From: a phage
Sequence record: PV874203.1
Strand: one strand, 5' to 3'
DNA: 64,000 bases
Part shown: one piece after another, positions 5,383-35,237 of the stretch
How positions within the stretch are numbered: the stretch's first letter is position 1
How the letters are laid out: the number at the start of each line of letters is the position of its first letter
The notes under the pieces: generated by a model
Database searches by the model: none
Seen by the model: only the letters and a program-made list of their open reading frames with translations
Told to the model about the DNA's origin: nothing
Program-made: the position numbers and the translations under genes

Positions 5383-5892
5383 TTATTTGTGACGATGAAA
5401 GCCTAAGTGTAGGTCTTCTCTCTTTATTCTTAGGGCTTCTTCAGCCTCTTCTTTAGTTGCATAATACCCTAGATGGATAGATTTCCCAGACACTCCAATA
5501 ATAGCTCTCCACTTATTAGCTCTTTTATGGAAAGAGACTCCCTTGATTCCGGAAGTACAGTTTATAGAGATCTTTCTGTTCCACTGATTCTGACTTAAAG
5601 TGGCTTCTCTTAGATTACACCACTTGTTATTAGAAGGGTCCCCATCTATGTGATCTACACAATCGGGAATGTAACCTTCCATATAAAGGAATGCAAGTCT
5701 ATGAGATTGGTACAATATTCGATTTACCTTGATGCAGTGGTATTTATGTTTTCCATAAAAACATCCAGCCACATCTCCAACATTCTTCCTACCTTTCTTA
5801 ACTGTCCAAGTAAACTGACCAGTATTCGGGTCATACTTGAGAAGTCTTTTTAACTCTTCTCTATCCAAGATTACCATTCCTTGTTTAACCAT
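5383..5892 (-). CDS. HNH homing endonuclease (HNH_3 plus AP2-like domain)
   Basis: HRLAFLYMEGYIPDCVDHIDGDPSNNKWCNLR motif, then GVSF/KW-A AP2-like segment. Confidence 0.8.
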   Translation of the reverse strand: MVKQGMVILDREELKRLLKYDPNTGQFTWTVKKGRKNVGDVAGCFYGKHKYHCIKVNRILYQSHRLAFLYMEGYIPDCVDHIDGDPSNNKWCNLREATLSQNQWNRKISINCTSGIKGVSFHKRANKWRAIIGVSGKSIHLGYYATKEEAEEALRIKREDLHLGFHRHK

Positions 5893-12323: not shown

Positions 12324-12476
12324 TCAATGGGTATGCATCCAATTCAATCCAATCTGACAATCAGATGCCAGAGGACATTCCATGTTCAAATACTCACCAG
12401 CCTTCTTAACACAAAGCTCGGTGTGCTCTTTGAGTTTCTGTACATCGTTACGATTAGCTGAGAACTGACCCTCATC
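12324..12476 (-). CDS. DNA polymerase (family A, T7 gp5-like), exon 2: motif C (DE of HDE) and C-terminus
   Basis: Hand translation gives DEGQFSANRNDVQKL...MECPLASDCQIGLNWMHTH*, paralleling the T7 DNA polymerase C-terminus (HDE... PNWAICH) as I recall it. An in-frame stop sits immediately upstream. Confidence 0.7.
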   Translation of the reverse strand, partial: DEGQFSANRNDVQKLKEHTELCVKKAGEYLNMECPLASDCQIGLNWMHTH

Positions 12477-13083
12477 CATTTATGTTATTCCCAAATTACT
12501 TCGGGTATCGGACTATATCATAACAGCATAGCTAATTTGCTGTTGTTGGCGCTTCGAGGGTTTCCCTGTTAACCCCCTACTCCCGCAGGATAGTCTCTAC
12601 ACTTTCCACTTTCGAATCCATCTACAAGCGATTCCAAAGCTCACACCAAACCTTTCTGCAAGAGCAACACCAGTACATTCATTATTAAGCCAGAACTCTT
12701 TAGCAGCATCCTGTCTTTCTCTGTTTCTACCAGTATTTGATTCTATGGCATGTGCACTACCTTCTAAGATCTCTAGATGATCAGTGTTACAACATGCCCT
12801 ATTCTTGCATTTGTGGTTAACTTCGTAGCCGTCAGGAATGTTTCCAAACTTCTCTTCCATGACATACCTATGATACATGACCCATTTGCCATTTATCACT
12901 TTTCGAAAGTATCCATCTTTATTTAATTTGTGTGAGATAGGGATGATACATCCTGTGCTAGTTGTTTCTAGCACTAGATCTTTCTTAGCCATATCACCTC
13001 CTAATAGCTTAGCTCGGTATTGCCCTCAACTTAATGGTCGGGTTTCACCGAGTTCACCAACTTTTACATGCACAATGAAGTTT
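12477..13083 (-). mobile_element. Putative group I intron interrupting the DNA polymerase gene at motif C, carrying an HNH homing endonuclease ORF
   Basis: 607-nt insert between exon 1 ending ...VIDMH (codon CAU, so U precedes the 5' splice site) and exon 2 starting DE...; last insert nucleotide is G. Exon 1 frame runs into the insert for 9 codons then stops. Boundaries are plus or minus a few nt. Confidence 0.6.
12597..12992 (-). CDS. HNH homing endonuclease (insert-encoded)
   Basis: GYEVNHKCKNRACCNTDHLE motif (HNH_3); lies wholly inside the insert in the polymerase gene. Confidence 0.8.
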   Translation of the reverse strand: MAKKDLVLETTSTGCIIPISHKLNKDGYFRKVINGKWVMYHRYVMEEKFGNIPDGYEVNHKCKNRACCNTDHLEILEGSAHAIESNTGRNRERQDAAKEFWLNNECTGVALAERFGVSFGIACRWIRKWKV

Positions 13084-14775
13084 ATGCATATCAATTACCT
13101 TAGCACAACGAACCTTATCTCTCTCAATCCACTTGTTAAGGAACATCATAGCATATTTCATAACAACAGCACCAGCACATTGCAGGAGAGTGTTAAGTGC
13201 TTTATGAACCATAACCTTACCAGTGGCATCTCGTCTCATTGTAATCTTACGACCATCAACACCAATCAAGTACCCTTGAGCAGCTTTCTCTGTCATACGA
13301 TCAATGAGGATTGCAATACATGGGTTCTCTGCCAAGAAACGTGCTCGCATCACTGAACCTTCGTCAGCCCCACCACCTACAATTGAACCGAGCTTAGCAT
13401 CACCAGCACCATAGTTGAATGCGTAGATAAATGTCTTAGCGTTGTCACGAGTAGGAAGACCAGCAAGTTTCTGGTTGTGGGAGTGTATATCACCTTCAAG
13501 GAGAATATCACGATACATAATAGCAGAAGCTAAACCACGTTCTGCCAGAGCTTTCTTAGCTGGATTGTTTTCTTCTATTGCTTCAGCAAGCATATCCCTA
13601 CACTCTTTAATGAGGTAGTGTGCAAGCATACGCAACTCTAACCCAGAACCATCATACCCCAAGAATACTTCTTTACCAGCGGGTATGTAATATTTGTAAG
13701 CACCTACAGGTTTGTCTTTCTTCCCCGGCTTACCTTTCTCATAAATTACGTTAGTACCTTTTCGTATATAACAACCATCAGGAACAACGTTAGTAATAAC
13801 GAAAGGACGAGAGTGATCATCATCTGAGTTATAGTCAGATTCAAACAAACTGCGACACTCATGACCAAACAAACCACGGGAGGGAATATTAACCACGATA
13901 CGATGTTTGAATCGAAAAGTCGGCGTAGCGCAGCTGTTAGCTTCTGCCGAAAGTTTACCATCTTCGCGCTCCTTTGCTATAAGTCCACTAATAAGACCTA
14001 GCCTGTGAGCCGCTACAACGCGTCTCTTAAGCAAACTTCCGACACTCCCTAGCTCACCCCCTAACCCTTCTTCAAGAGTCTCCTCGAGGTTTGTAGGGGC
14101 TGTAGGCCACTTGTTTGAGGTAGCTAGTGCTATCTTAATCTCATCAAAAGTAATAGGTCTACGTCGGTTAGGATTTAAACCTAAACCAAACACATAAGCC
14201 TTCATGTAGTTCTTAGTTTTAAACCGAAAATGCTTCTCTAAGAACTTTCTAATATCAGCGTCAACCATCTCGGCTGTCTGCTTCTGTTTAGCATTACCTC
14301 GCATCCAAGCTGAATACCATGCTTGGTATGTTCCATACTTTCGCATATCTTTCTTGATTTCAAAAGTATTCCAAGGTTTCTTTGATACATTAAACTCTGG
14401 AGGAAGAAAACCCTCATCCATAAGGGCTTCTTTAACTCGGGCATCTTTCGATGGGTCAAAGGCTACGTACTCTACACAGGTGAATGCTCCACCAATGTCT
14501 TCTCTCTTAAGTCCAACCCTATCACAATAGGCTTGAGGCCACTTCTGTAAAGCTCCAGACTTCTTAAATGGCTTCATATAAGTAGAGCCATCTAATCTCA
14601 TCTTAGGTAAGAGAGGAATCAGTTCTTTGTCAATATTAACAATAATCTCTTTAAGGAGGTGAACATACCACCGAGCATTTCTTCGGTTGAAACTCACTCC
14701 GTGCTTCGCTTGCTTAGAGATTATATCAGCGACAGTCATCTCTGTCAAAAATGGGAGAGCGTCCGGGTTGCTCAC
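13084..14775 (-). CDS. DNA polymerase (family A, T7 gp5-like), exon 1: polymerase domain through motif B, no 3'-5' exonuclease domain
   Basis: Motif A GYDGSGLELRMLAHY, motif B RDNAKTFIYAFNYGAG, and ALNTLLQCAGA segment parallel T7 gp5. Track ORF ends at 13054 after reading 9 codons into the insert. Confidence 0.85.
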
Positions 14776-17655: not shown

Positions 17656-17840
17656 TCAGTAAGAGACCACAGAGAGTCACCTATGCGGGCATTGTCATTC
17701 CTGATGAGATCTTTAATTTTATCCACATCAGTTAAGTGTGTTACGTTCAAGATATCCTTAACCTCTGGGGCATATTTAAATATGGCAACAATACTTTTAT
17801 GATCTTCAGCATATCTTTCTAGAACATAAACTACGCTCAT
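17640..17840 (-). CDS. Hypothetical protein
   Basis: 66-aa ORF. Confidence 0.4.
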   Translation of the reverse strand: MSVVYVLERYAEDHKSIVAIFKYAPEVKDILNVTHLTDVDKIKDLIRNDNARIGDSLWSLTEWTLW

Positions 17841-18160
17841 GCGACGTTAGCCTCTTTATGAAGTCTGTAAACAGCTGTCGCCATACAAGCAACAGCCTCA
17901 TTGTGTGGGAGATGCATCCCTGTAGAACCATCCCAATCTTTGAACTCATTGTCAAAGACTCCGGTAGGCTCTGGATATAAGGCTTGCAACTCAACCAAAT
18001 CATTAGCAACTTGTTGCCATTTATCATCAGACCAGATAGGGTCATCCAACCAGTAATACAAATAGGAATGGATGATCAATTGCCTTCTGTGCCGATTGAT
18101 TACTTCAGCGGGACTTATCTCACTTCCATTTGAAGTCCTAAATGTATCACTGTCAATCAT
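17837..18160 (-). CDS. Hypothetical protein resembling the N-terminal domain Ia of NAD-dependent DNA ligase
   Basis: LIIHSYLYYWLDDPIWSDDKW...LVELQALYPEP parallels the LigA N-terminal pattern (HH-YLYHV-D-P-I-D-EYD...LE...PE). Only about 107 aa, no adenylation domain. Confidence 0.35.
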   Translation of the reverse strand: MIDSDTFRTSNGSEISPAEVINRHRRQLIIHSYLYYWLDDPIWSDDKWQQVANDLVELQALYPEPTGVFDNEFKDWDGSTGMHLPHNEAVACMATAVYRLHKEANVA

Positions 18161-18162
18161 GA

Positions 18163-18819
18163 TTACTTATTCCAAGTAGTTGATAAGGCTTTCCAAGAGA
18201 TAGGATAAAGTTTCTTCATCTCTTCGTCAATAGTTTGTGCAAACAAACGAACTTCATATTGAGCGTGTTCTGATAGGCGTTGACGACATACTTCTGACCA
18301 GCCGTATAAGGATCCAGTCCAGATCCACTCTGTCGTCATTCCCTGAGGTAGGACAAACCGAGCTTGCTCAGGAGCAATTAGGTCAATCAATTTTTCATAA
18401 TTGCTAACAGCTACTTCATACGCCTCATTAATCAATGTGAGAGCCTCTACACGGGCTTCATCTTGTAAGATGATACCAGAACCCTTATGAAGGTCATCAG
18501 GTCGGGAGAAGATCTCTTGTGGGATAAATACCTCAACACCATCATCCTTGTACCTGCGGCTTTTCTCATTCCAGCTAAACCCTGATTGATGCTTCCCAAG
18601 TTGACGAGCGATGGCAATAGGAGCTACACAGCGGAAGGTTACTTGTGGGTGCCTAAAAGGAGTCACATGTTTTTCACGAGCAAGAAAGTTGATGAGACGC
18701 TCATCACGCTCATTTAAATCACCTTCACGGGTTACACCAAAGGATACACGAGCTGCATTAACAACGGTTTTATCCGAGCCCATTGCTTCTACTAATGTTA
18801 CTTTTAACTGATCAGACAT
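18163..18819 (-). CDS. thyX: Putative flavin-dependent thymidylate synthase (ThyX-like)
   Basis: Size and a KH-x7-S-RRY segment resembling the ThyX RHR-x7-S signature; not a perfect match. Confidence 0.5.
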   Translation of the reverse strand: MSDQLKVTLVEAMGSDKTVVNAARVSFGVTREGDLNERDERLINFLAREKHVTPFRHPQVTFRCVAPIAIARQLGKHQSGFSWNEKSRRYKDDGVEVFIPQEIFSRPDDLHKGSGIILQDEARVEALTLINEAYEVAVSNYEKLIDLIAPEQARFVLPQGMTTEWIWTGSLYGWSEVCRQRLSEHAQYEVRLFAQTIDEEMKKLYPISWKALSTTWNK

Positions 18820-18831
18820 TGATTATCCTTG

Positions 18832-19107
18832 TTATTTATTATTCAGAGCTGTATCTAAAAATGCTTTCAGGTTTGCTTCAGTCTGCATACCAGAGAGGCT
18901 GTAATGTGCACCACTGTTACGGTCAGGTACAACAAAAGCAGGGATGCTTCGTACACCATATTTAACAGCTTGTTCACGACCATCACCTTCAAGGATGTTA
19001 ATCTCTTCCACTTCTACATCAAACTCCTTAACAACCTTCTCAAAGGTAGGAGCCATTGCTTTACATGGAGCACACTGATCACTATAAAACTTAATTACTT
19101 TAGACAT
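18832..19107 (-). CDS. Thioredoxin
   Basis: CAPC active site in a 91-aa protein with thioredoxin-like flanking sequence. Confidence 0.8.
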   Translation of the reverse strand: MSKVIKFYSDQCAPCKAMAPTFEKVVKEFDVEVEEINILEGDGREQAVKYGVRSIPAFVVPDRNSGAHYSLSGMQTEANLKAFLDTALNNK

Positions 19108-19115
19108 GTAAATCC

Positions 19116-19295
19116 TTATGCAGTCAGGAGGTGAAGAATGAATGGGATAACAACAGCTACGACAACCATAATGGTTGATGCTGTTTGAATCTCACCTTTC
19201 TTGTCAGGGGTTTCTTCAATAAGCTTACCAGAAGCCCAATAAATACCACCACCAATAAAGATAGCCCAAATACCCCATACGATTGCTGATAACAT
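19116..19295 (-). CDS. Hypothetical small membrane protein (59 aa, two predicted TM helices)
   Basis: Sub-threshold ORF found by hand (MLSAIVWGIWAIFIGGGIYWASG...VVVAVVIPFILHLL). Confidence 0.35.
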   Translation of the reverse strand: MLSAIVWGIWAIFIGGGIYWASGKLIEETPDKKGEIQTASTIMVVVAVVIPFILHLLTA

Positions 19296-19352: not shown

Positions 19353-19916
19353 TTAGTAAGACACATCACCACTTGAGTGGGACATGTTGCTCTTGACGAA
19401 GTAGCAATACTTGCCGAGACCTTCATTGATTTCTTGAAGCATACTCTGATCAACTGGATAGGTGGCTAAATCACCATCAAACTCATCCATCTTCTCAATA
19501 ATACACATCAAGGTCATGCACATATCAGAGAGCATACCGTCCATATCTAGGTCAGCATTACCTTCTGAGAACCAAGCATGAGAAAGATAATTGGCTGCTG
19601 TAGCGTCCACTTTAACACAGTGGTAACGCATACGTTCAGCAATACGATCTCCTACTTGTCGTGCGTAATCTTCCAGCTCATCAAACATACCATGAACACC
19701 CTGAAATCCTGCACCAGAGACGTTCCAGTGGTAGTTTTTAGCTTTGATATGCAAGAGTTCCATGTTAGCTTGTAAGCAGCTCAGGATGTGTTCTAGGCTG
19801 TTTCCACTAATCATACCCTGCATAGTTTCAAGGCGAGAGATTGAAAGCTCAGATCGGTCTAACATGTTATATTCTGCACGACCGATTTCAGGTAAATCAA
19901 AGACATTCTTATGCAT
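19353..19916 (-). CDS. Dps/ferritin-like protein
   Basis: KAKNYHWNVSGAGFQGVHGMFDELEDYARQVGDRIAERM matches the Dps helix A/B ferroxidase-region pattern; length about 187 aa. Confidence 0.55.
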   Translation of the reverse strand: MHKNVFDLPEIGRAEYNMLDRSELSISRLETMQGMISGNSLEHILSCLQANMELLHIKAKNYHWNVSGAGFQGVHGMFDELEDYARQVGDRIAERMRYHCVKVDATAANYLSHAWFSEGNADLDMDGMLSDMCMTLMCIIEKMDEFDGDLATYPVDQSMLQEINEGLGKYCYFVKSNMSHSSGDVSY

Positions 19917-20403
19917 TATATTCCCTCCAAGTTTGATTAAGTAGAGCTTTTGACATCACTTGCTGAGAGACACCAAAACGTCTTGCAAGGGCAGAGCCTC
20001 CAAACTCTTTATCTCGAGGGATATAGACTCTCCTACAGTACTCTACATCTTCTAGAGTAAGTTTAGACTGTGGATTGTCTTCTCCAAACCTCTGTACCAT
20101 CAGACCTAATGATGATGCATGTTGAGAGTTTTCTCGGTGGGTACACCATTCAAGATTATCTTTATGATTGTTAAGTTTATTGCCATCCTTATGGTTGACA
20201 CATGGAAGATTATCAGGGTTCGGTATGTACTTACTAGCAACCAGCCTGTGGACATAGAAATTCTTTAATCCTTCAGGAAAGTAAATAGTAACTCTGTAAT
20301 AGGCACCATTAGTGTGGAGGGTTAAAAACCTTCCACTCTTTATAGTAAATACTCTACCATCTTCTGTTACATCAATCTTCCCTTCCAATTCTTTTGGAAT
20401 CAC
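19909..20403 (-). CDS. HNH homing endonuclease
   Basis: YVHRLVASKYI...VNHKDGNKLNNHKDNLEWCTHRENSQH (HNH_3). Confidence 0.8.
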   Translation of the reverse strand: MIPKELEGKIDVTEDGRVFTIKSGRFLTLHTNGAYYRVTIYFPEGLKNFYVHRLVASKYIPNPDNLPCVNHKDGNKLNNHKDNLEWCTHRENSQHASSLGLMVQRFGEDNPQSKLTLEDVEYCRRVYIPRDKEFGGSALARRFGVSQQVMSKALLNQTWREYNA

Positions 20404-20726
20404 TTAGGGTCTTCTCCTTCTAACTCAGTAGAGTTTGCTACATTTCTTTCTAGATTGCTTAGAATTTGCTGGGTAATTACGATGCAGTTCTGTGGGTCTA
20501 CTGACTTAGAACGCCCCATTTCAGGGTCATACACCTTAACACGCTTAGCAGTTGAACCTGTGACCTGAAGAACCTTCAACAGATATCCCTGATTACCGAT
20601 AGACCAAGCAACAACATCACGATTCTTGATAAAGCGACCAAGCATATCACGATGATAAAACTGTTGCATCACCTTGGATTTTGTAATCTCTTCAGTGGGC
20701 GGGGCCACTTTACTCAAATCTAACAT
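20400..20726 (-). CDS. Hypothetical protein
   Basis: 108-aa ORF. Confidence 0.45.
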   Translation of the reverse strand: MLDLSKVAPPTEEITKSKVMQQFYHRDMLGRFIKNRDVVAWSIGNQGYLLKVLQVTGSTAKRVKVYDPEMGRSKSVDPQNCIVITQQILSNLERNVANSTELEGEDPK

Positions 20727-30532: not shown

Positions 30533-31636
30533 TTACAGCGCTTGCTCTAACTGATTTTCCAGATGATCTGGAATGTACCCTGTGATATTGCTATCACTGT
30601 GTCCTGACTCACGTAGCAAGTCAAAAATAGCACGGATACGTTGCTCTGGTGCAGATCGTACAGTAGATAAATCAGTTGTACGAAGCATAACCAGAATCTC
30701 TTGGTACAAGTTGTTAGCGTTCCCTCGGACATATCCAAGGAATCCGTAGAAGTCTGACATATAACGTAAGTCAACAAGAACATCTCCGTTGGAGTTGGTT
30801 CGACGTAAACGAATACGACCAGACTGCTCTACTCCATGAGAACGGCAATACAAAACATCACGGGCCATACAATAGCCTGAATGCAAATCCGACTCGTCCA
30901 GATTGTAATCCAGAGGAAGGTAAGGAAGCATCGGGGCAAATCGTACAGTATTTAAATGCTCAATAAACTGATCATTGCTCATCTCTGCGTTATCTAATGC
31001 CAGCTTCTTCAACATCAAGAAGCGGTTAACCAGATTGAGAAGTTGACCACGTTTCCACTTAGGCTCACTGATACGGAACTCAATCGAACCGTATTGGGCA
31101 AGTGGCAGAAGGTTCAGAGATGTATATTTATCCCATGAACGAACCAGACGGTTGAAGAACTCTTCATCGTCGTAGTTAAATGCGTCAGAGGCATTCATTA
31201 CCTGTGCTTGTACCACTGCGAAAGCAGGGCAGAAGTTGCTACGGTAACGATGGTAGCCTGAACACTTGAACAACATCTTTTCATAGAAGGTCCAAGCGAG
31301 AACGGTTTTCTTGAGGATATTACTATCAGCATCCCTCATATCCATATGAACGTGAGTAGAGCAACGCCAAGTCCCCTCGGCGTGCGATTCAGCTACTGCT
31401 TCACTCAGGTTGTTGATAGCGTCTAACAACTCCTGTCCGTTGTAAGGTCGTGAACATACCATTTCACAACCATTACGCAGGGAACCATCCTCTGTACAAT
31501 CCCACATATCTGCTTCGATATGATCGGAACCTTCGAGTTCAAGTTCAATACCGACACCGCACTGAAGTGCAATTGAACTATGCGCCTCAGTTAAACGACC
31601 TTCTCGATATCCAAAAGTTTGCGCTACAGTTGTCAT
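30533..31636 (-). CDS. Amidoligase (glutamine-synthetase-like fold, Amidoligase_2-type)
   Basis: GIELELEG and CSTHVHMD motifs consistent with carboxylate-amine ligases of the GS fold; assignment from memory of the family. Confidence 0.55.
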   Translation of the reverse strand: MTTVAQTFGYREGRLTEAHSSIALQCGVGIELELEGSDHIEADMWDCTEDGSLRNGCEMVCSRPYNGQELLDAINNLSEAVAESHAEGTWRCSTHVHMDMRDADSNILKKTVLAWTFYEKMLFKCSGYHRYRSNFCPAFAVVQAQVMNASDAFNYDDEEFFNRLVRSWDKYTSLNLLPLAQYGSIEFRISEPKWKRGQLLNLVNRFLMLKKLALDNAEMSNDQFIEHLNTVRFAPMLPYLPLDYNLDESDLHSGYCMARDVLYCRSHGVEQSGRIRLRRTNSNGDVLVDLRYMSDFYGFLGYVRGNANNLYQEILVMLRTTDLSTVRSAPEQRIRAIFDLLRESGHSDSNITGYIPDHLENQLEQAL

Positions 31637-32250
31637 AACGAATCCACCAACGTAATATTGTAATTGCTAAGGTTTTCAGAAATGTGATGAAAGTGTTCCA
31701 GAAGTCGCATCGGTTGCTGACCGTAAGAGTCACGAGGCGCTTCCAGATCTACTTGTCCTACCAGTGCACCTTTATAATGCACCTTACCATCAGTAGGGTT
31801 GATGTAAATATAACGAGTGACCAATCCTTCGAATTCAGGATTGAACAGACTGTAAACCATCTCCCCGGAGATAGCACGACCAACACCCGGAGCATTTCGA
31901 ATCTTGTTACCCATCAAACCCTTTGCTCTCTGACGAACAGGGTTAATATGAGTCCAGCTTACAGTGTTACCGTTATGGAACAGATAACCAACATCAGGTG
32001 ATTCAAGAATCAAGGTTGGGTCGAACACTGGAATACTTATCGTAGTGTTTCGAAGGTGCCCTTGCTCATTCTTGTACCACTGCTCTACAACAAAGTACAG
32101 AGCCTGTTCTGCTTCGTGAGAGAAGTCATCGCTGCGGAAGTTACCGCTCTGCTCGACACCGATCACAAAACACGGAAGGTTGATATTACCTGCTCGTTTA
32201 GCAATCCATGTACCATTATAGTAATGAGAAAAATCAGCTACTAAGCTCAC
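31633..32250 (-). CDS. Hypothetical protein
   Basis: 205-aa ORF, translationally coupled to neighbours. Confidence 0.5.
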   Translation of the reverse strand: MSLVADFSHYYNGTWIAKRAGNINLPCFVIGVEQSGNFRSDDFSHEAEQALYFVVEQWYKNEQGHLRNTTISIPVFDPTLILESPDVGYLFHNGNTVSWTHINPVRQRAKGLMGNKIRNAPGVGRAISGEMVYSLFNPEFEGLVTRYIYINPTDGKVHYKGALVGQVDLEAPRDSYGQQPMRLLEHFHHISENLSNYNITLVDSL

Positions 32251-32259
32251 GATAACCTC

Positions 32260-33066
32260 TTATGCTACCTGAAGGAGTTTGATCTGCTGGTCCGCTTCTT
32301 TAACGTTGTTGCCGTTAATGATTTCATGAAGCTTCTCAATCGGAAGGCGAGAGTGCAATGCCATCAGAGTGGACATATCACACTGCTGAACAACTTTGTC
32401 AACCTGATCATAAACAAACTTACGATTTTCACGATCACTAATCCAGAAGTTAGACAGTGAACGATATTCAATACCATAATCTTTATAACGGATTGCAGAC
32501 GCTTTACCGTAGAGTTCTTTACGGCGAGTATCTTTATCCATAATAACTGCTGGAAGGGACAGGAAGTAGTCACACAGCACACCCAACATCATCTGAGTTT
32601 GCAGGGTGATATCCAAAGCACCAACTACGCCAAGATGTACGTGACCGCCGGCAGTACGAAGTCCCTTATTCTGAGAAGTCGGGGATGGATTCTTCTGACC
32701 AGTGAAAGCGTTGAAATCAGGAGTACACCCGAAGATGAACGCTGATTCATTGAAAGTCTTCATCTCTTCTTCAGTGAAGATGTGAGAGCTAACACCCGGA
32801 GCTGCTTCCATGTCCAGTTTGTTCAGGACATTGTTGGTGAGATCGATACCACGTTGCATGTTATCGTTAAACGCTTCAAAACCGCTCTGTGGGTCGATAT
32901 CAAACTCAGCCAGTACGTTGTCCTCTTGAAGACGAACATCCTTAGCCAGAGTGATCTTATCGTCCTTAGAACAGCCTAACAGACCAGCCACAGAGGTGAT
33001 AATACCATTGCTGGTACGAACGAACATTTCAGGGTCAGAGCCAATAAGGAAAGCGCGCTTAGTCAT
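32260..33066 (-). CDS. Hypothetical protein, possibly a second GS-fold amidoligase-like enzyme (weak)
   Basis: LIGSDPEMF, SSHIF and GGHVHLGV are reminiscent of the E-x-E / H-x-H metal-site pattern. Confidence 0.45.
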   Translation of the reverse strand: MTKRAFLIGSDPEMFVRTSNGIITSVAGLLGCSKDDKITLAKDVRLQEDNVLAEFDIDPQSGFEAFNDNMQRGIDLTNNVLNKLDMEAAPGVSSHIFTEEEMKTFNESAFIFGCTPDFNAFTGQKNPSPTSQNKGLRTAGGHVHLGVVGALDITLQTQMMLGVLCDYFLSLPAVIMDKDTRRKELYGKASAIRYKDYGIEYRSLSNFWISDRENRKFVYDQVDKVVQQCDMSTLMALHSRLPIEKLHEIINGNNVKEADQQIKLLQVA

Positions 33067-34030
33067 TGTAATACTCCACTAATTCAGAAAAGAGAGATGA
33101 GATTGTGTTACCAACTTCTTCAGTAGTAAGGCCAGAGCTTGGGCCAGTACGCTGAATTAGTCGGGCTGTAAAGTTTTGTACTGTAATGTTTTCCAACTTA
33201 TTGTCTATTGCTTCACGTTTGTGACCATGACAGTTGGACCAGAGTTGTAACCACTCTGACATTGTTTGGTACTCGTCCGGGTCTTGATCTTTAGCTTGAG
33301 CAAAAGCAGTCAGAGCCTCTAGGTCGTGGTTTCGAACATAACCATTTTGGTTTCTACCTTCACCAAACATACCTTGCACCCACACCTGATCTGTATACTC
33401 ATCAGAGTCTACAACCAAAGGTAAGAATGCTGCTGCTGACATGTCACCATTAATGGCAACAGATGTACTTTCACTTGAGCTGTTAGCCCTTCCTCGTTGA
33501 GACCACCCACCGAAGAAGTCACGACCTAACCCAGCTAACACTAGAGCGATGCCGATGCGTTTACGCTTCAGCCACTCTTCCCTGTCTTCAATTCCTTCTG
33601 CTAGGAAATCCATTCCACGATACTGCCCTTCCAGAATACTACGGAAAAGCATAAGTCCTGTGAAGATCTGATCTGCTGGATGCTCACGGAGGTTGACAGC
33701 AACACTATTCGCTGAAGTGATTGTAAATACGTCACGATAGCAAGACATGGAGTTCATAATGTCTGCTGTTTCAACCAAGTTCTTTTCAATATCAGATGCA
33801 ACATGACCATGAAAAGAGTGAGTCCAGTAATTCAACATCTCCAATTGCAAGTTGATGTCACGGTTGAAGCGTCTATAACGTCCTTCTTCCGTGATAACTT
33901 CACCATTAATGTCACTTACGCATTGGCCTTGCATGTAGTTGTGGATACCGAAGCATCCACGACCTAAGAACTTCTGTTCCCCTAAATCTTGTTGAAGATT
34001 CAGAGGTACGATCGTTGTGGAGATTGACAT
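33059..34030 (-). CDS. Hypothetical protein
   Basis: 323-aa ORF. Confidence 0.5.
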   Translation of the reverse strand: MSISTTIVPLNLQQDLGEQKFLGRGCFGIHNYMQGQCVSDINGEVITEEGRYRRFNRDINLQLEMLNYWTHSFHGHVASDIEKNLVETADIMNSMSCYRDVFTITSANSVAVNLREHPADQIFTGLMLFRSILEGQYRGMDFLAEGIEDREEWLKRKRIGIALVLAGLGRDFFGGWSQRGRANSSSESTSVAINGDMSAAAFLPLVVDSDEYTDQVWVQGMFGEGRNQNGYVRNHDLEALTAFAQAKDQDPDEYQTMSEWLQLWSNCHGHKREAIDNKLENITVQNFTARLIQRTGPSSGLTTEEVGNTISSLFSELVEYYND

Positions 34031-34040
34031 AACTAACCTT

Positions 34041-35237
34041 TTATTTTCCTAAAAATAATCCGCTCATAACACCATCCCATTCAGAGGATGGAATCACTGA
34101 ATACACCGAACTTTGGTCCAGAGTTCCACTACTAAATCGCTGAACAATGTTATAAATGTTGAACAGATCTTTAGTCTCAGCACGAATGCCGTAGATTAGG
34201 CTGTTAGCTGTTCTTTCATCTTTAGACACTCGACGGGCAAAGTTAATCAGAAGGTTATCACATTTCAGGATTTCTGATTCACTCTCTACTAGATCAGGGT
34301 GCATCACCGGCAAGAACATCGAGTTATTAACTCGTAATTCTGCTGTTTCATCATTCTCATAATGAATCCACTTAAAGTCTTCATCACGGAAATGACCACA
34401 CCCCTCTCTGTACGACTGCTGACGCCAAGGAACTTGAAATGCTTCAGCATACTTATCAGCCATACCAACTGTAAATAACGACGCCGGGAAGATACAAGCA
34501 TCCCAATCATTACCAACCAGAGTTGCTTTCGTTTCCCCTAAGAGGTTAGTGTAAGTGCTAACCATTCGTGAGTAAACATAAGCCTGAAGGATTGTCCAGC
34601 CCTCAACCAACCATTTATGGAGGAAGGTTTCAACTTGACTCTCTTCATCTTCACAATAGAAGGTTCGGTCTAGCATTAAATAGAACAGACAACGATCAGC
34701 AGGAACGTTCTCAGTTGCTACGCCCATAAAACCTTTCTCGTGCCAGCGTAAACAGGAGGGACGATCTTTGTCCACAAATGCTTCCATAGCTTCCAGTACA
34801 GCACGAGGTGTGGTTCGATGCTCAGGGTTTTTACTATTCCAACGATCAATGTTATTCTTGGGAGGTGTGTCTTCATCTTCATATGAACACCAACCTAAAG
34901 CTGCGGATACAGGTTTTTCATCACGCCAACGTATAAAACCTAACATCTTCATGTGAGTTCCGGAGTTCCAGATATGCTTGATTTTACACATATCCATCTC
35001 TCGGCTTAACAGGAACTCTTCCCCATCAGCACTACGAACGTTAGCTTCTTCATGCCACACTCGAACGTGCATATTCCACCCATGAGTCGCCTCATACATG
35101 TTAGGGTCAAAGTATTCGTCTTCGTAATCATCTTCATCAACGCCACCGTTATAGTTGCGAAGCTGAAGGAACCCATAACAAGGAGGGTGGACCGTTAAAA
35201 CATTACCTTCAGTATCTTCTAATGTTACTGGAAACAT
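34041..35237 (-). CDS. Hypothetical protein
   Basis: 398-aa ORF rich in Trp/His/acidic residues. Confidence 0.5.
   Translation of the reverse strand: MFPVTLEDTEGNVLTVHPPCYGFLQLRNYNGGVDEDDYEDEYFDPNMYEATHGWNMHVRVWHEEANVRSADGEEFLLSREMDMCKIKHIWNSGTHMKMLGFIRWRDEKPVSAALGWCSYEDEDTPPKNNIDRWNSKNPEHRTTPRAVLEAMEAFVDKDRPSCLRWHEKGFMGVATENVPADRCLFYLMLDRTFYCEDEESQVETFLHKWLVEGWTILQAYVYSRMVSTYTNLLGETKATLVGNDWDACIFPASLFTVGMADKYAEAFQVPWRQQSYREGCGHFRDEDFKWIHYENDETAELRVNNSMFLPVMHPDLVESESEILKCDNLLINFARRVSKDERTANSLIYGIRAETKDLFNIYNIVQRFSSGTLDQSSVYSVIPSSEWDGVMSGLFLGK

Follow-up and report, generated by a model that had tools for sequence, protein, structure and literature searches.

A phage-encoded short thioredoxin and a split T7-type DNA polymerase in one replication module: redox accessory or processivity subunit?

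The gene at positions 18832..19107 (minus strand) of the phage sequence PV874203.1 encodes a short thioredoxin of 91 amino acids. The most economical reading of this protein is a redox-active accessory to nucleotide metabolism and replication, while a dedicated processivity subunit of the T7-type DNA polymerase encoded by the same phage ranks second. The window, by which is meant the whole analysed stretch of 64,000 nucleotides, establishes together with its relatives the fold of the protein, an intact CxPC/cis-Pro/Gly site, an operon context, conservation, and expression in a close relative. The initial annotation was right that a phage-encoded thioredoxin with the motif CAPC and a T7-like polymerase are found together. 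Its further idea, that this thioredoxin is the polymerase's own subunit, is unsupported by the comparative data: the corresponding polymerase insertion is found without a phage thioredoxin in phiIBB-PAA2 and Vp_R1, the interface of the thioredoxin is altered, and both of its cysteines are invariant.

The thioredoxin and its genomic setting

Judged by nucleotide sequence, the window comes from a phiEco32-like E. coli phage of the genus Kuravirus; a 14-kb stretch around the thioredoxin gene is 91-95% identical to phiEco32, IMEP8, PE006, and some 100 further E. coli phages of this genus. Kuravirus belongs to the Gordonclarkvirinae and has the C3 morphotype, with very elongated heads. Gene order was taken from the annotated phiEco32 and IMEP8 records, and the genes around the thioredoxin gene are the following.

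18163..18819, minus strand: ThyX, flavin-dependent thymidylate synthase (Pfam Thy1, E 1.5e-44; annotated in relatives)
18832..19107, minus strand: short phage thioredoxin, 91 aa, homologue of phiEco32 gp65 (ORF, Pfam, phrog_22, AlphaFold2, Foldseek)
19116..19295, minus strand: small hydrophobic protein, 59 aa, phiEco32 gp66 family, no assigned function (phrog_9296, E 7e-34)
19353..19916, minus strand: Dps/ferritin-like protein, phiEco32 gp67 family (Pfam Ferritin, E 2.5e-7; phrog_3636)
20400..20726, minus strand: conserved 108-aa protein, phiEco32 gp68 family, no assigned function (phrog_10984, E 7e-62)
21406..21939, minus strand: dCTP deaminase (Pfam DCD, E 3.6e-34; TIGR02274, 107.6 bits, above cut-off)

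The thioredoxin ORF has an ATG start with the ribosome binding site AAGGA 7 nt upstream. It begins 8 nt past the stop of the gp66-family gene, which lies directly upstream, and it stops 12 nt before the start of ThyX, which follows directly downstream in the same direction; these gaps place the thioredoxin gene in an operon. In the relatives compared the gene is always found in a nucleotide-metabolism block, between the genes for the primase-helicase and the exonuclease and that for the polymerase. Its neighbours in the block encode dCTP deaminase, PhoH, ThyX, the Dps/ferritin-like protein, and the gp68-family protein, and the same block gains NrdDG in GAP52 and NrdAB in Privateer-like phages. 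The dCTP deaminase gene adjoins the thioredoxin gene in GAP52 and in a Proteus phage, while a PhoH gene intervenes in 7-11 and in the metagenomic locus L013. Synteny links the Dps-like gene to the thioredoxin gene in Kuravirus, GAP52, 7-11, Privateer-like phages, and L013, and the gp68-family gene accompanies these two in phages of the C3 morphotype (GAP52 and 7-11 records; SU10 paper).

Several methods agree on the identity of the protein. Pfam Thioredoxin (PF00085) matches with an E-value of 2.1e-13 and 50.6 bits (cut-off 23.5), covering profile positions 22-102 of 103, and the PHROG family phrog_22 ('thioredoxin domain') matches with an E-value of 8.8e-13. The AlphaFold2 model, made from an alignment of 64 family members, has a pLDDT of 92 and displays the minimal beta-alpha-beta-alpha-beta-beta-alpha fold, with strands at residues 3-8, 32-37, 57-61, and 68-72 and helices at 13-26, 43-49, and 77-89. 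The active site C12-A-P-C15 is situated at the start of helix 1 and is accompanied by cis-Pro56 and Gly73; I55-P56 are aligned to I75-P76 of TrxA. In Foldseek the model matches best to classical thioredoxins of the PDB, among them E. coli TrxA and the thioredoxin chain (B) of the T7 polymerase complex 1T7P, with TM-scores of about 0.8 and rmsd values of 1.8-1.9 Å.

The homologues in Kuravirus (LAMP, phiEco32, SU10, IMEP8, and others) are 97-100% identical at the amino-acid level and occupy the same slot between the Dps-like gene and ThyX. In the records of phiEco32 and IMEP8 they are annotated as thioredoxin, and the phiEco32 gp65/Kuravirus 'thiol-disulfide isomerase and thioredoxin' is the same gene, with no material difference. 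A tblastn search found the thioredoxin in 129 phage records, 98 of them at an identity of at least 60%, against 99 records with a Kuravirus-level polymerase; about 98 of 99 Kuravirus records have thus retained the gene. In SU10 the homologue is a middle gene whose product was seen by mass spectrometry with 52.8% peptide coverage (SU10 paper).

The protein is clearly distinguishable from E. coli TrxA. The N-terminal beta1-alpha1 is absent, so that the first 20 or so TrxA residues have no counterpart. In the alignment QCAPC replaces WCGPC, Lys6 takes the position of the buried Asp26, and Gln11 that of Trp31. The interface known from TrxA carries the changes W31Q, G33A, G74S, K90L, and A93M, while R73, I75, cis-P76, G92, N59, and I60 are kept. 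The equivalog cut-offs for classical TrxA are missed (TIGR01068, 49.2 versus 96.8 bits; TrxA NF006898, 37.7 versus 138). phrog_22 is a large family found across many phage types, and dozens of its members of 80-92 aa align from residue 1-3, beginning right at the strand that precedes CxPC. The protein of the window belongs to these short phage thioredoxins, which have the thioredoxin fold minus the bacterial N-terminal strand and helix. N-terminal shortening has been described for most phage thioredoxins and is widespread (bioRxiv 10.1101/2025.10.05.680603). Among 64 short thioredoxins with 27-97% identity only C12, P14, C15, cis-P56, and G73 are invariant, a set that is the redox machinery and includes no polymerase-specific surface.

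The split polymerase and its thumb insertion

When the polymerase was compared with all PDB sequences using phmmer, T7 gp5 was the sole match (E 8.5e-30). The AlphaFold2 model of the polymerase has a pLDDT of 92, and in Foldseek T7 gp5 again comes first (E 5e-26), with Bst and KlenTaq behind (about 1e-16). At the position of T7 Y526 a tyrosine is found within 'KTFIYAFNYGAG'. The enzyme is a member of the T7-like PolA cluster, but its pol subunit has no exonuclease domain, this activity being assigned to a separate protein. The parts of the replication machinery are listed below.

12324..12476, minus strand: DNA polymerase exon 2, the last 50 residues, DEGQFSANRN...WMHTH, which contain the catalytic Asp and Glu of motif C (in another frame, 607 nt later)
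12477..13083, minus strand: group I intron, 607 nt (weak match to Rfam Intron_gpI with E 2e-4 and 27.2 bits against a gathering score of 50; boundaries)
13084..14775, minus strand: DNA polymerase exon 1, residues 1-564, comprising thumb, palm, and fingers as far as motif C '...VIDMH' (identity of 97-98% to the polymerases of phiEco32 and IMEP8, whose genes are uninterrupted)
14446..14604, minus strand: thumb-tip insertion, residues 58-110, KMRLDGSTYMKPFKKSGALQKWPQAYCDRVGLKREDIGGAFTCVEYVAFDPSK (phmmer, BLAST, MAFFT, hhalign, AlphaFold2)
23297..23851, minus strand: separate 3'-5' exonuclease subunit, 184 aa, homologue of phiEco32 gp74 (Pfam DNA_pol_A_exo1, E 1.1e-8; phrog_38876 and phrog_403, 'DNA polymerase exonuclease subunit'; annotation)
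23845..25635, minus strand: T7 gp4-type primase-helicase (Pfam DnaB_C and Toprim_2)

The thioredoxin gene lies between the genes for the two polymerase subunits. The distance to the pol gene downstream, which had been put at about 5 kb, is 4.1 kb, and the exo gene is found 4.2 kb away on the other side. The exo and pol genes are 8.5 kb apart, with about 20 genes in between.

The intron interrupts the polymerase in motif C, between His564 and Asp565. Its 5' splice site is preceded by a U and its last base is a G, and it contains an ORF for an HNH homing endonuclease (12597..12992; Pfam HNH_3, E 7.6e-12). It is absent from phiEco32 and IMEP8, while homologous inserts are found in the polymerase genes of other Kuravirus and of T7-like phages. 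An ORF of 573 aa (13054..14775) consists of exon 1 and nine intron-encoded residues only; it could be ruled out that this is a truncated pseudogene, since the C-terminus that it lacks is encoded behind an intron whose boundaries are correct for group I. Besides the intron, the window has in comparison with phiEco32 an extra gene for an HNH endonuclease, separated from the thioredoxin gene on its upstream side by the gp66-like and Dps-like genes.

A thumb insertion of the T7 type, on which the initial annotation had made its idea depend, is present in part. The spliced polymerase of 614 aa was aligned by MAFFT with T7 gp5, five other T7-like polymerases, and Klenow, the T7-like polymerases having been gathered individually from phage records. 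An insertion of about 53 aa separates thumb helices H and H1 of the polymerase, at the site where T7 has the 76 aa of its thioredoxin-binding domain (TBD) and Klenow about six residues. Both phmmer and BLAST align residues 63-134 of the Kuravirus enzyme (Ku) to T7 293-362. When the insertion alone was used in hhalign, Ku 71-106 matched T7 292-334 with an E-value of 3.9e-5 and a probability of 70%, and when helix H1 was included these values became 5e-9 and 96%. The C-terminal 36 or so residues of the insertion are thus homologous to the C-terminal half of the 76-aa TBD. The N-terminal half is absent; about 25 residues are missing there, and with them the contact Y265 and the basic 'backward loop' are lost.

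In T7, the residues E319, P325, T327, V329, E330, and Y265 have been described as thioredoxin contacts, a description that stems from a molecular-dynamics simulation of the T7 complex (PMC5984650). Four of these six positions are identical in Ku (E319=E92, T327=T99, V329=V101, and E330=E102). P325 is replaced by A97, although most of the family has a proline here, and Y265 falls within the deleted part. The insertion is conserved to the same degree as the remaining enzyme among 85 homologues, and AlphaFold2 models it without a partner as an ordered strand-helix-strand element with a pLDDT of about 90. It could dock a thioredoxin, or it could serve mainly as a contact for DNA or for the helicase tail. 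The C-terminal tail of the primase-helicase is acidic with Trp as its last residue, and in this it is like T7 gp4, whose tail is also acidic and has a terminal aromatic residue. Docking of the detached exo subunit was rejected as the main explanation of the insertion, as the same element is found in unsplit T7-like polymerases.

Polymerases of this family with 38-50% identity are found in Grimontviridae (GAP52, 7-11, Privateer-like phages, and Vp_R1), in many metagenomic contigs, and in the LUZ24-like Bruynogheviruses of Pseudomonas. All of these carry the insertion with the core motif G-[GS]-P-F-T-A-x-x-Y-x-P-F-D. All stop-to-stop ORFs of at least 40 aa were searched with thioredoxin HMMs, E. 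coli TrxA being part of one of these. Clear matches were obtained in the window and in the fetched loci of phiEco32, IMEP8, GAP52, 7-11, the Proteus phage, and L013, and within 10 kb on either side of the polymerase in one contig (L014) a 70-aa mini-thioredoxin with the motif CGPC was found in the same slot after a dUTPase/dCTP-deaminase gene. Neither the complete 45-kb genome of the Bruynoghevirus phiIBB-PAA2 nor the complete 112-kb genome of the Vibrio phage Vp_R1 gave any thioredoxin match at an HMM E-value of up to 10, and a further contig (L012) had none within 10 kb on either side of the polymerase. Vp_R1 encodes NrdAB and ThyX. About 243 phage records have a full-length polymerase of this type, and a thioredoxin of the type found here is detectable in only 129. 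The contact motif of the insertion is indistinguishable between the lineages that have the thioredoxin and those that do not.

Since the insertion-bearing polymerase is found in phages without a thioredoxin, the thumb element must in these phages work with host thioredoxin or with none. This phyletic pattern suggests that host TrxA would suffice for the thumb element, and comparison of the phages speaks against the polymerase being obligatorily paired with a phage thioredoxin.

Possible roles of the thioredoxin

The role ranked first is that of a redox-active accessory thioredoxin predicted to support DNA precursor supply and replication, and we judge its chances to be about even. The protein would act as a thiol-disulfide reductase, presumably kept reduced by the thioredoxin reductase of the host, and when reduced it would in turn reduce disulfides of enzymes that are limiting for the synthesis of phage DNA. 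As a client, ribonucleotide reductase (RNR) would suggest itself first, namely host NrdAB for Kuravirus and phage RNRs in some of the relatives. A higher dNTP supply would then raise replication indirectly, and the thioredoxin would not be an obligatory polymerase subunit. The redox reading is favoured by the thioredoxin fold with its intact active site, by the limitation of the invariant residues to the redox machinery, and by the spread of phrog_22 among phage types. It is further favoured by the fixed position of the gene within the nucleotide-metabolism block, by the expression in SU10, by the occurrence of the same polymerase thumb motif without a phage thioredoxin, and by the precedent of Syn5. 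T7 polymerase reportedly needs neither the redox activity of thioredoxin nor both of its cysteines. As both cysteines are strictly kept in the phage proteins and a structural role would not need them, selection seems to have acted on the chemistry.

The Syn5 phage thioredoxin is redox-active, increases genome replication, and is toxic to the host when active, and the authors prefer a role as reductant of RNR (bioRxiv 10.1101/2025.10.05.680603). AlphaFold3 was found to dock the host thioredoxin, and not that of the phage, on the TBD of the Syn5 polymerase (bioRxiv 10.1101/2025.10.05.680603). Syn5 and Kuravirus are alike in having a short thioredoxin in the replication module and a T7-type polymerase, and the same two candidate mechanisms were considered for both. 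Unlike Kuravirus, Syn5 encodes an RNR and its thioredoxin has the motif CGPC, and both the redox activity and the benefit to replication were determined by experiment.

The T4 NrdC-type pairing, where a phage thioredoxin or glutaredoxin reduces an RNR encoded in the same genome, does not apply to Kuravirus. The annotation of the complete IMEP8 genome lists no RNR, and a Pfam scan of four long minus-strand ORFs of the window, those for the polymerase, the primase-helicase, a glutamine amidotransferase, and a nucleotidyltransferase, gave nothing RNR-like. As Kuravirus has no RNR of its own, the client must be a host enzyme, and since E. coli is already rich in TrxA and Grx1 the benefit of a phage copy is not obvious. 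A reductase without a phage client is harder to rationalise, and this one point keeps the processivity idea alive. The retention of the gene in about 98 of 99 Kuravirus records and in relatives without RNR would be predicted equally well by a structural role linked to replication. In addition, the absence of Asp26 and Trp31 and the equivalog scores below cut-off speak against taking catalytic efficiency and recognition by TrxB for granted. ThyX, a candidate client by adjacency, could be ruled out, since it is reduced by NAD(P)H via FAD.

The second reading takes the thioredoxin to be a dedicated processivity subunit that binds the half-size TBD on the thumb of the polymerase, which appears possible but rather unlikely. 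It has been proposed earlier in the genome paper of the Proteus phage Privateer, according to which the T7-like polymerase may gain processivity by coupling with the thioredoxin that all C3 phages conserve, a link that would account for the conservation of both (PeerJ 2021, PMC7881722). That proposal concerns the same C3 phage group, and the thumb insertion and the thioredoxin-less relatives are outside the scope of the paper; the Privateer-like phages moreover encode NrdAB, unlike Kuravirus. The resemblance to the T7 gp5-TrxA complex (1T7P) is considerable. Both systems have a T7-type polymerase with an insertion exactly at the H/H1 site of the TBD, a homologous C-terminal half of this domain with contact positions matched by E92, T99, V101, and E102, and a thioredoxin fold that superimposes at 1.9 Å. 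On the thioredoxin side R73, I75, P76, G92, I60, and N59 are retained. The location of the thioredoxin gene between both pol-subunit genes, in the same module of middle genes, is also in favour of this reading, as is the joint retention of thioredoxin and polymerase by Kuravirus, GAP52, 7-11, and Privateer-like phages, whether an RNR is present or not. Since T7 resistance is known to arise through loss of trxA, a phage would profit from carrying the factor itself.

The systems differ in that the Kuravirus thioredoxin is phage-encoded, shortened at the N-terminus, and has CAPC instead of WCGPC, while the TBD homologue has about 53 and not 76 aa and lacks the N-terminal half, pol and exo are split, and binding is putative. 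Several of these differences weigh against the protein being a dedicated processivity subunit. The missing part of the TBD includes Y265 and the backward loop, the latter being what thioredoxin binding exposes to the DNA. The insertion is modelled as ordered without any partner, the thioredoxin has the five substitutions relative to TrxA mentioned above, and both its cysteines are invariant. The motif G-G/S-P-F-T-A-x-x-Y is found in the thioredoxin-less Bruynoghevirus and Vp_R1 as well, so that a phage partner is not required. The Syn5 phage thioredoxin failed to dock, and a parallel among other split enzymes points in the same direction. A survey of family A polymerases describes split T7-like PolAs, similar to that of S-SBP1, where the TBD has about half the usual length, and AlphaFold2 found no complex between such polymerases and host thioredoxins (Czernecki et al., 2023, PMC10201439). 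Like these, the Kuravirus enzyme has exo and pol in separate genes, a TBD reduced to about half, and a putative binding of thioredoxin. The S-SBP1 fission is a frameshift between adjacent genes, whereas the exo and pol genes of Kuravirus lie far apart, and the lineage (Kuravirus, Grimontviridae, and Bruynoghevirus) is a different one.

An extension of the processivity idea, which we hold with similar reservation, is that Kuravirus and their C3 relatives might possess a fully phage-encoded replicase of three polypeptides, pol, exo, and a truncated thioredoxin, that would be independent of host trxA. A search of the literature found no experiment on Kuravirus and trxA hosts.

It is improbable that the thioredoxin forms an oxidative-stress or iron-handling module together with the Dps/ferritin-like and gp68-family proteins, which would shield phage DNA during its replication or maintain phage and host proteins in the reduced state in the course of infection. 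The three genes are indeed neighbours in Kuravirus, GAP52, 7-11, Privateer-like phages, and locus L013, but this linkage may merely reflect a conserved order within the module. The matches of the Dps-like protein are below curated cut-offs, including that of the NCBIfam Dps model, and Vp_R1, which has no thioredoxin, has an annotated 'starvation-inducible transcriptional regulator' that is possibly Dps-like. To our knowledge no direct chemistry between thioredoxin and Dps has been established. On the other side, the three genes are among the few common to all five C3 phages examined in the SU10 paper, and the authors describing Privateer class the thioredoxin under stress response (PMC7881722). 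An equally improbable role is that of a host-takeover factor which would perturb redox-regulated host metabolism by reducing specific host proteins, with a secondary effect on replication, for although the altered substrate-binding face (W31Q, K90L, and A93M) could retarget specificity, the gene sits among replication and nucleotide genes and not among early host-takeover genes.

Significance

Both the gene and the processivity idea are already published, and the thioredoxin is well annotated and comes from a protein family that is among the commonest in phages. What the present analysis adds is the residue-level map of the half-size TBD in the Kuravirus/Bruynoghevirus polymerase family and the phyletic argument that this element needs no phage-encoded partner. 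If the thioredoxin should nevertheless turn out to be a clamp, this would be the first documented phage with its own T7-type processivity factor, and it would explain why phages without RNR retain a thioredoxin. The minimal TBD would then be about 36-50 aa, which is possibly useful for the engineering of processive PolA enzymes. A replicase of three phage-encoded parts would in turn free the phage from host trxA and thereby close the route to resistance through trxA loss that T7 faces.

Intron and endonuclease genes

12477..13083, minus strand: predicted group I intron of 607 nt, within the DNA polymerase gene
12597..12992, minus strand: HNH_3 homing endonuclease ORF inside the polymerase intron
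19909..20403, minus strand: free-standing gene for an HNH_3 endonuclease of 164 aa (Pfam E 7e-9)
5383..5892, minus strand: third endonuclease ORF, HNH_3+AP2

The DNA polymerase gene is interrupted within the sequence encoding catalytic motif C (between VIDMH and DEGQ). The insert scores 27 bits as an Rfam group I intron, which is below the gathering threshold of 50 bits. PE006 and pEC-N1203-2Af.1 carry it at 99% identity, SU7 and ECBP2 at about 85%, and it is missing in phiEco32 and IMEP8. Synonymous changes flank the insertion site (CAT/GAG/CAG in the window versus CAC/GAA/CAA in phiEco32). The polymerase genes of the T7-like phages LNA7, Sekstaphage-1, VSG32, and JeanTinguely carry inserts with 65-67% identity to the window intron, so that a single intron family appears to move between Kuravirus and Autographiviridae.

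The free-standing HNH_3 gene lies two genes upstream of the thioredoxin gene, with the gp68-like gene on one side and the Dps-like gene on the other, and shares a few bases with each of these neighbors. In phiEco32 and IMEP8 neither an HNH_3 gene nor any other gene is found between these two.

Thioredoxin neighborhood and related loci

17837..18160, minus strand: 107-aa Nlig-Ia protein (Pfam Nlig-Ia E 2.5e-35)
Locus L014 7523..7735, plus strand: mini-thioredoxin, 70 aa (MKTLYTSPTCGPCK...AIPT...; family HMM E 1.8e-5)

When the window genes for thioredoxin (18832..19107), the gp68-family protein (20400..20726), and the Dps/ferritin-like protein (19353..19916), all on the minus strand, were compared with the related loci L009, L010, L011, and L013, the three were found clustered in Kuravirus, Crifsvirus, Moazamivirus, Privateervirus, and one metagenomic relative. 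Several relatives (L012, L013) encode a small ATP-cone-only protein after the ferritin-like gene.

The mini-thioredoxin of contig L014, a relative whose polymerase is 40% identical, is encoded after a dUTPase/dCTP-deaminase gene. It was detected solely by the family HMM built in this analysis, and the precomputed Pfam annotation of L014 leaves it unmarked.

The counterparts of the 107-aa protein are labeled 'DNA ligase' in the relatives' records. Of the NAD-dependent DNA ligase domains it has the N-terminal Ia (NAD+-binding) one alone. An adenylation domain is absent, and the protein cannot by itself be a ligase.

Primase-helicase tail and amidoligase block

23845..25635, minus strand: primase-helicase
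26781..35237, minus strand: gene block encoding ATP-grasp, glutamine amidotransferase, COOH-NH2 ligase (amidoligase), and gamma-glutamyl cyclotransferase proteins

At its C-terminus the primase-helicase has an acidic tail whose last residue is aromatic, and this Kuravirus tail resembles that of T7 gp4. The T7 gp4 tail docks on basic patches of the thioredoxin-binding domain. A basic KPFKK is kept in the Kuravirus thumb insertion, and the alignment places it near FKKPKNK of T7.

The amidoligase block is common to the window, Bruynoghevirus, and Vp_R1. Should it act on gamma-glutamyl compounds, for instance glutathione, this could, as pure speculation, bear on the usefulness of the thioredoxin.
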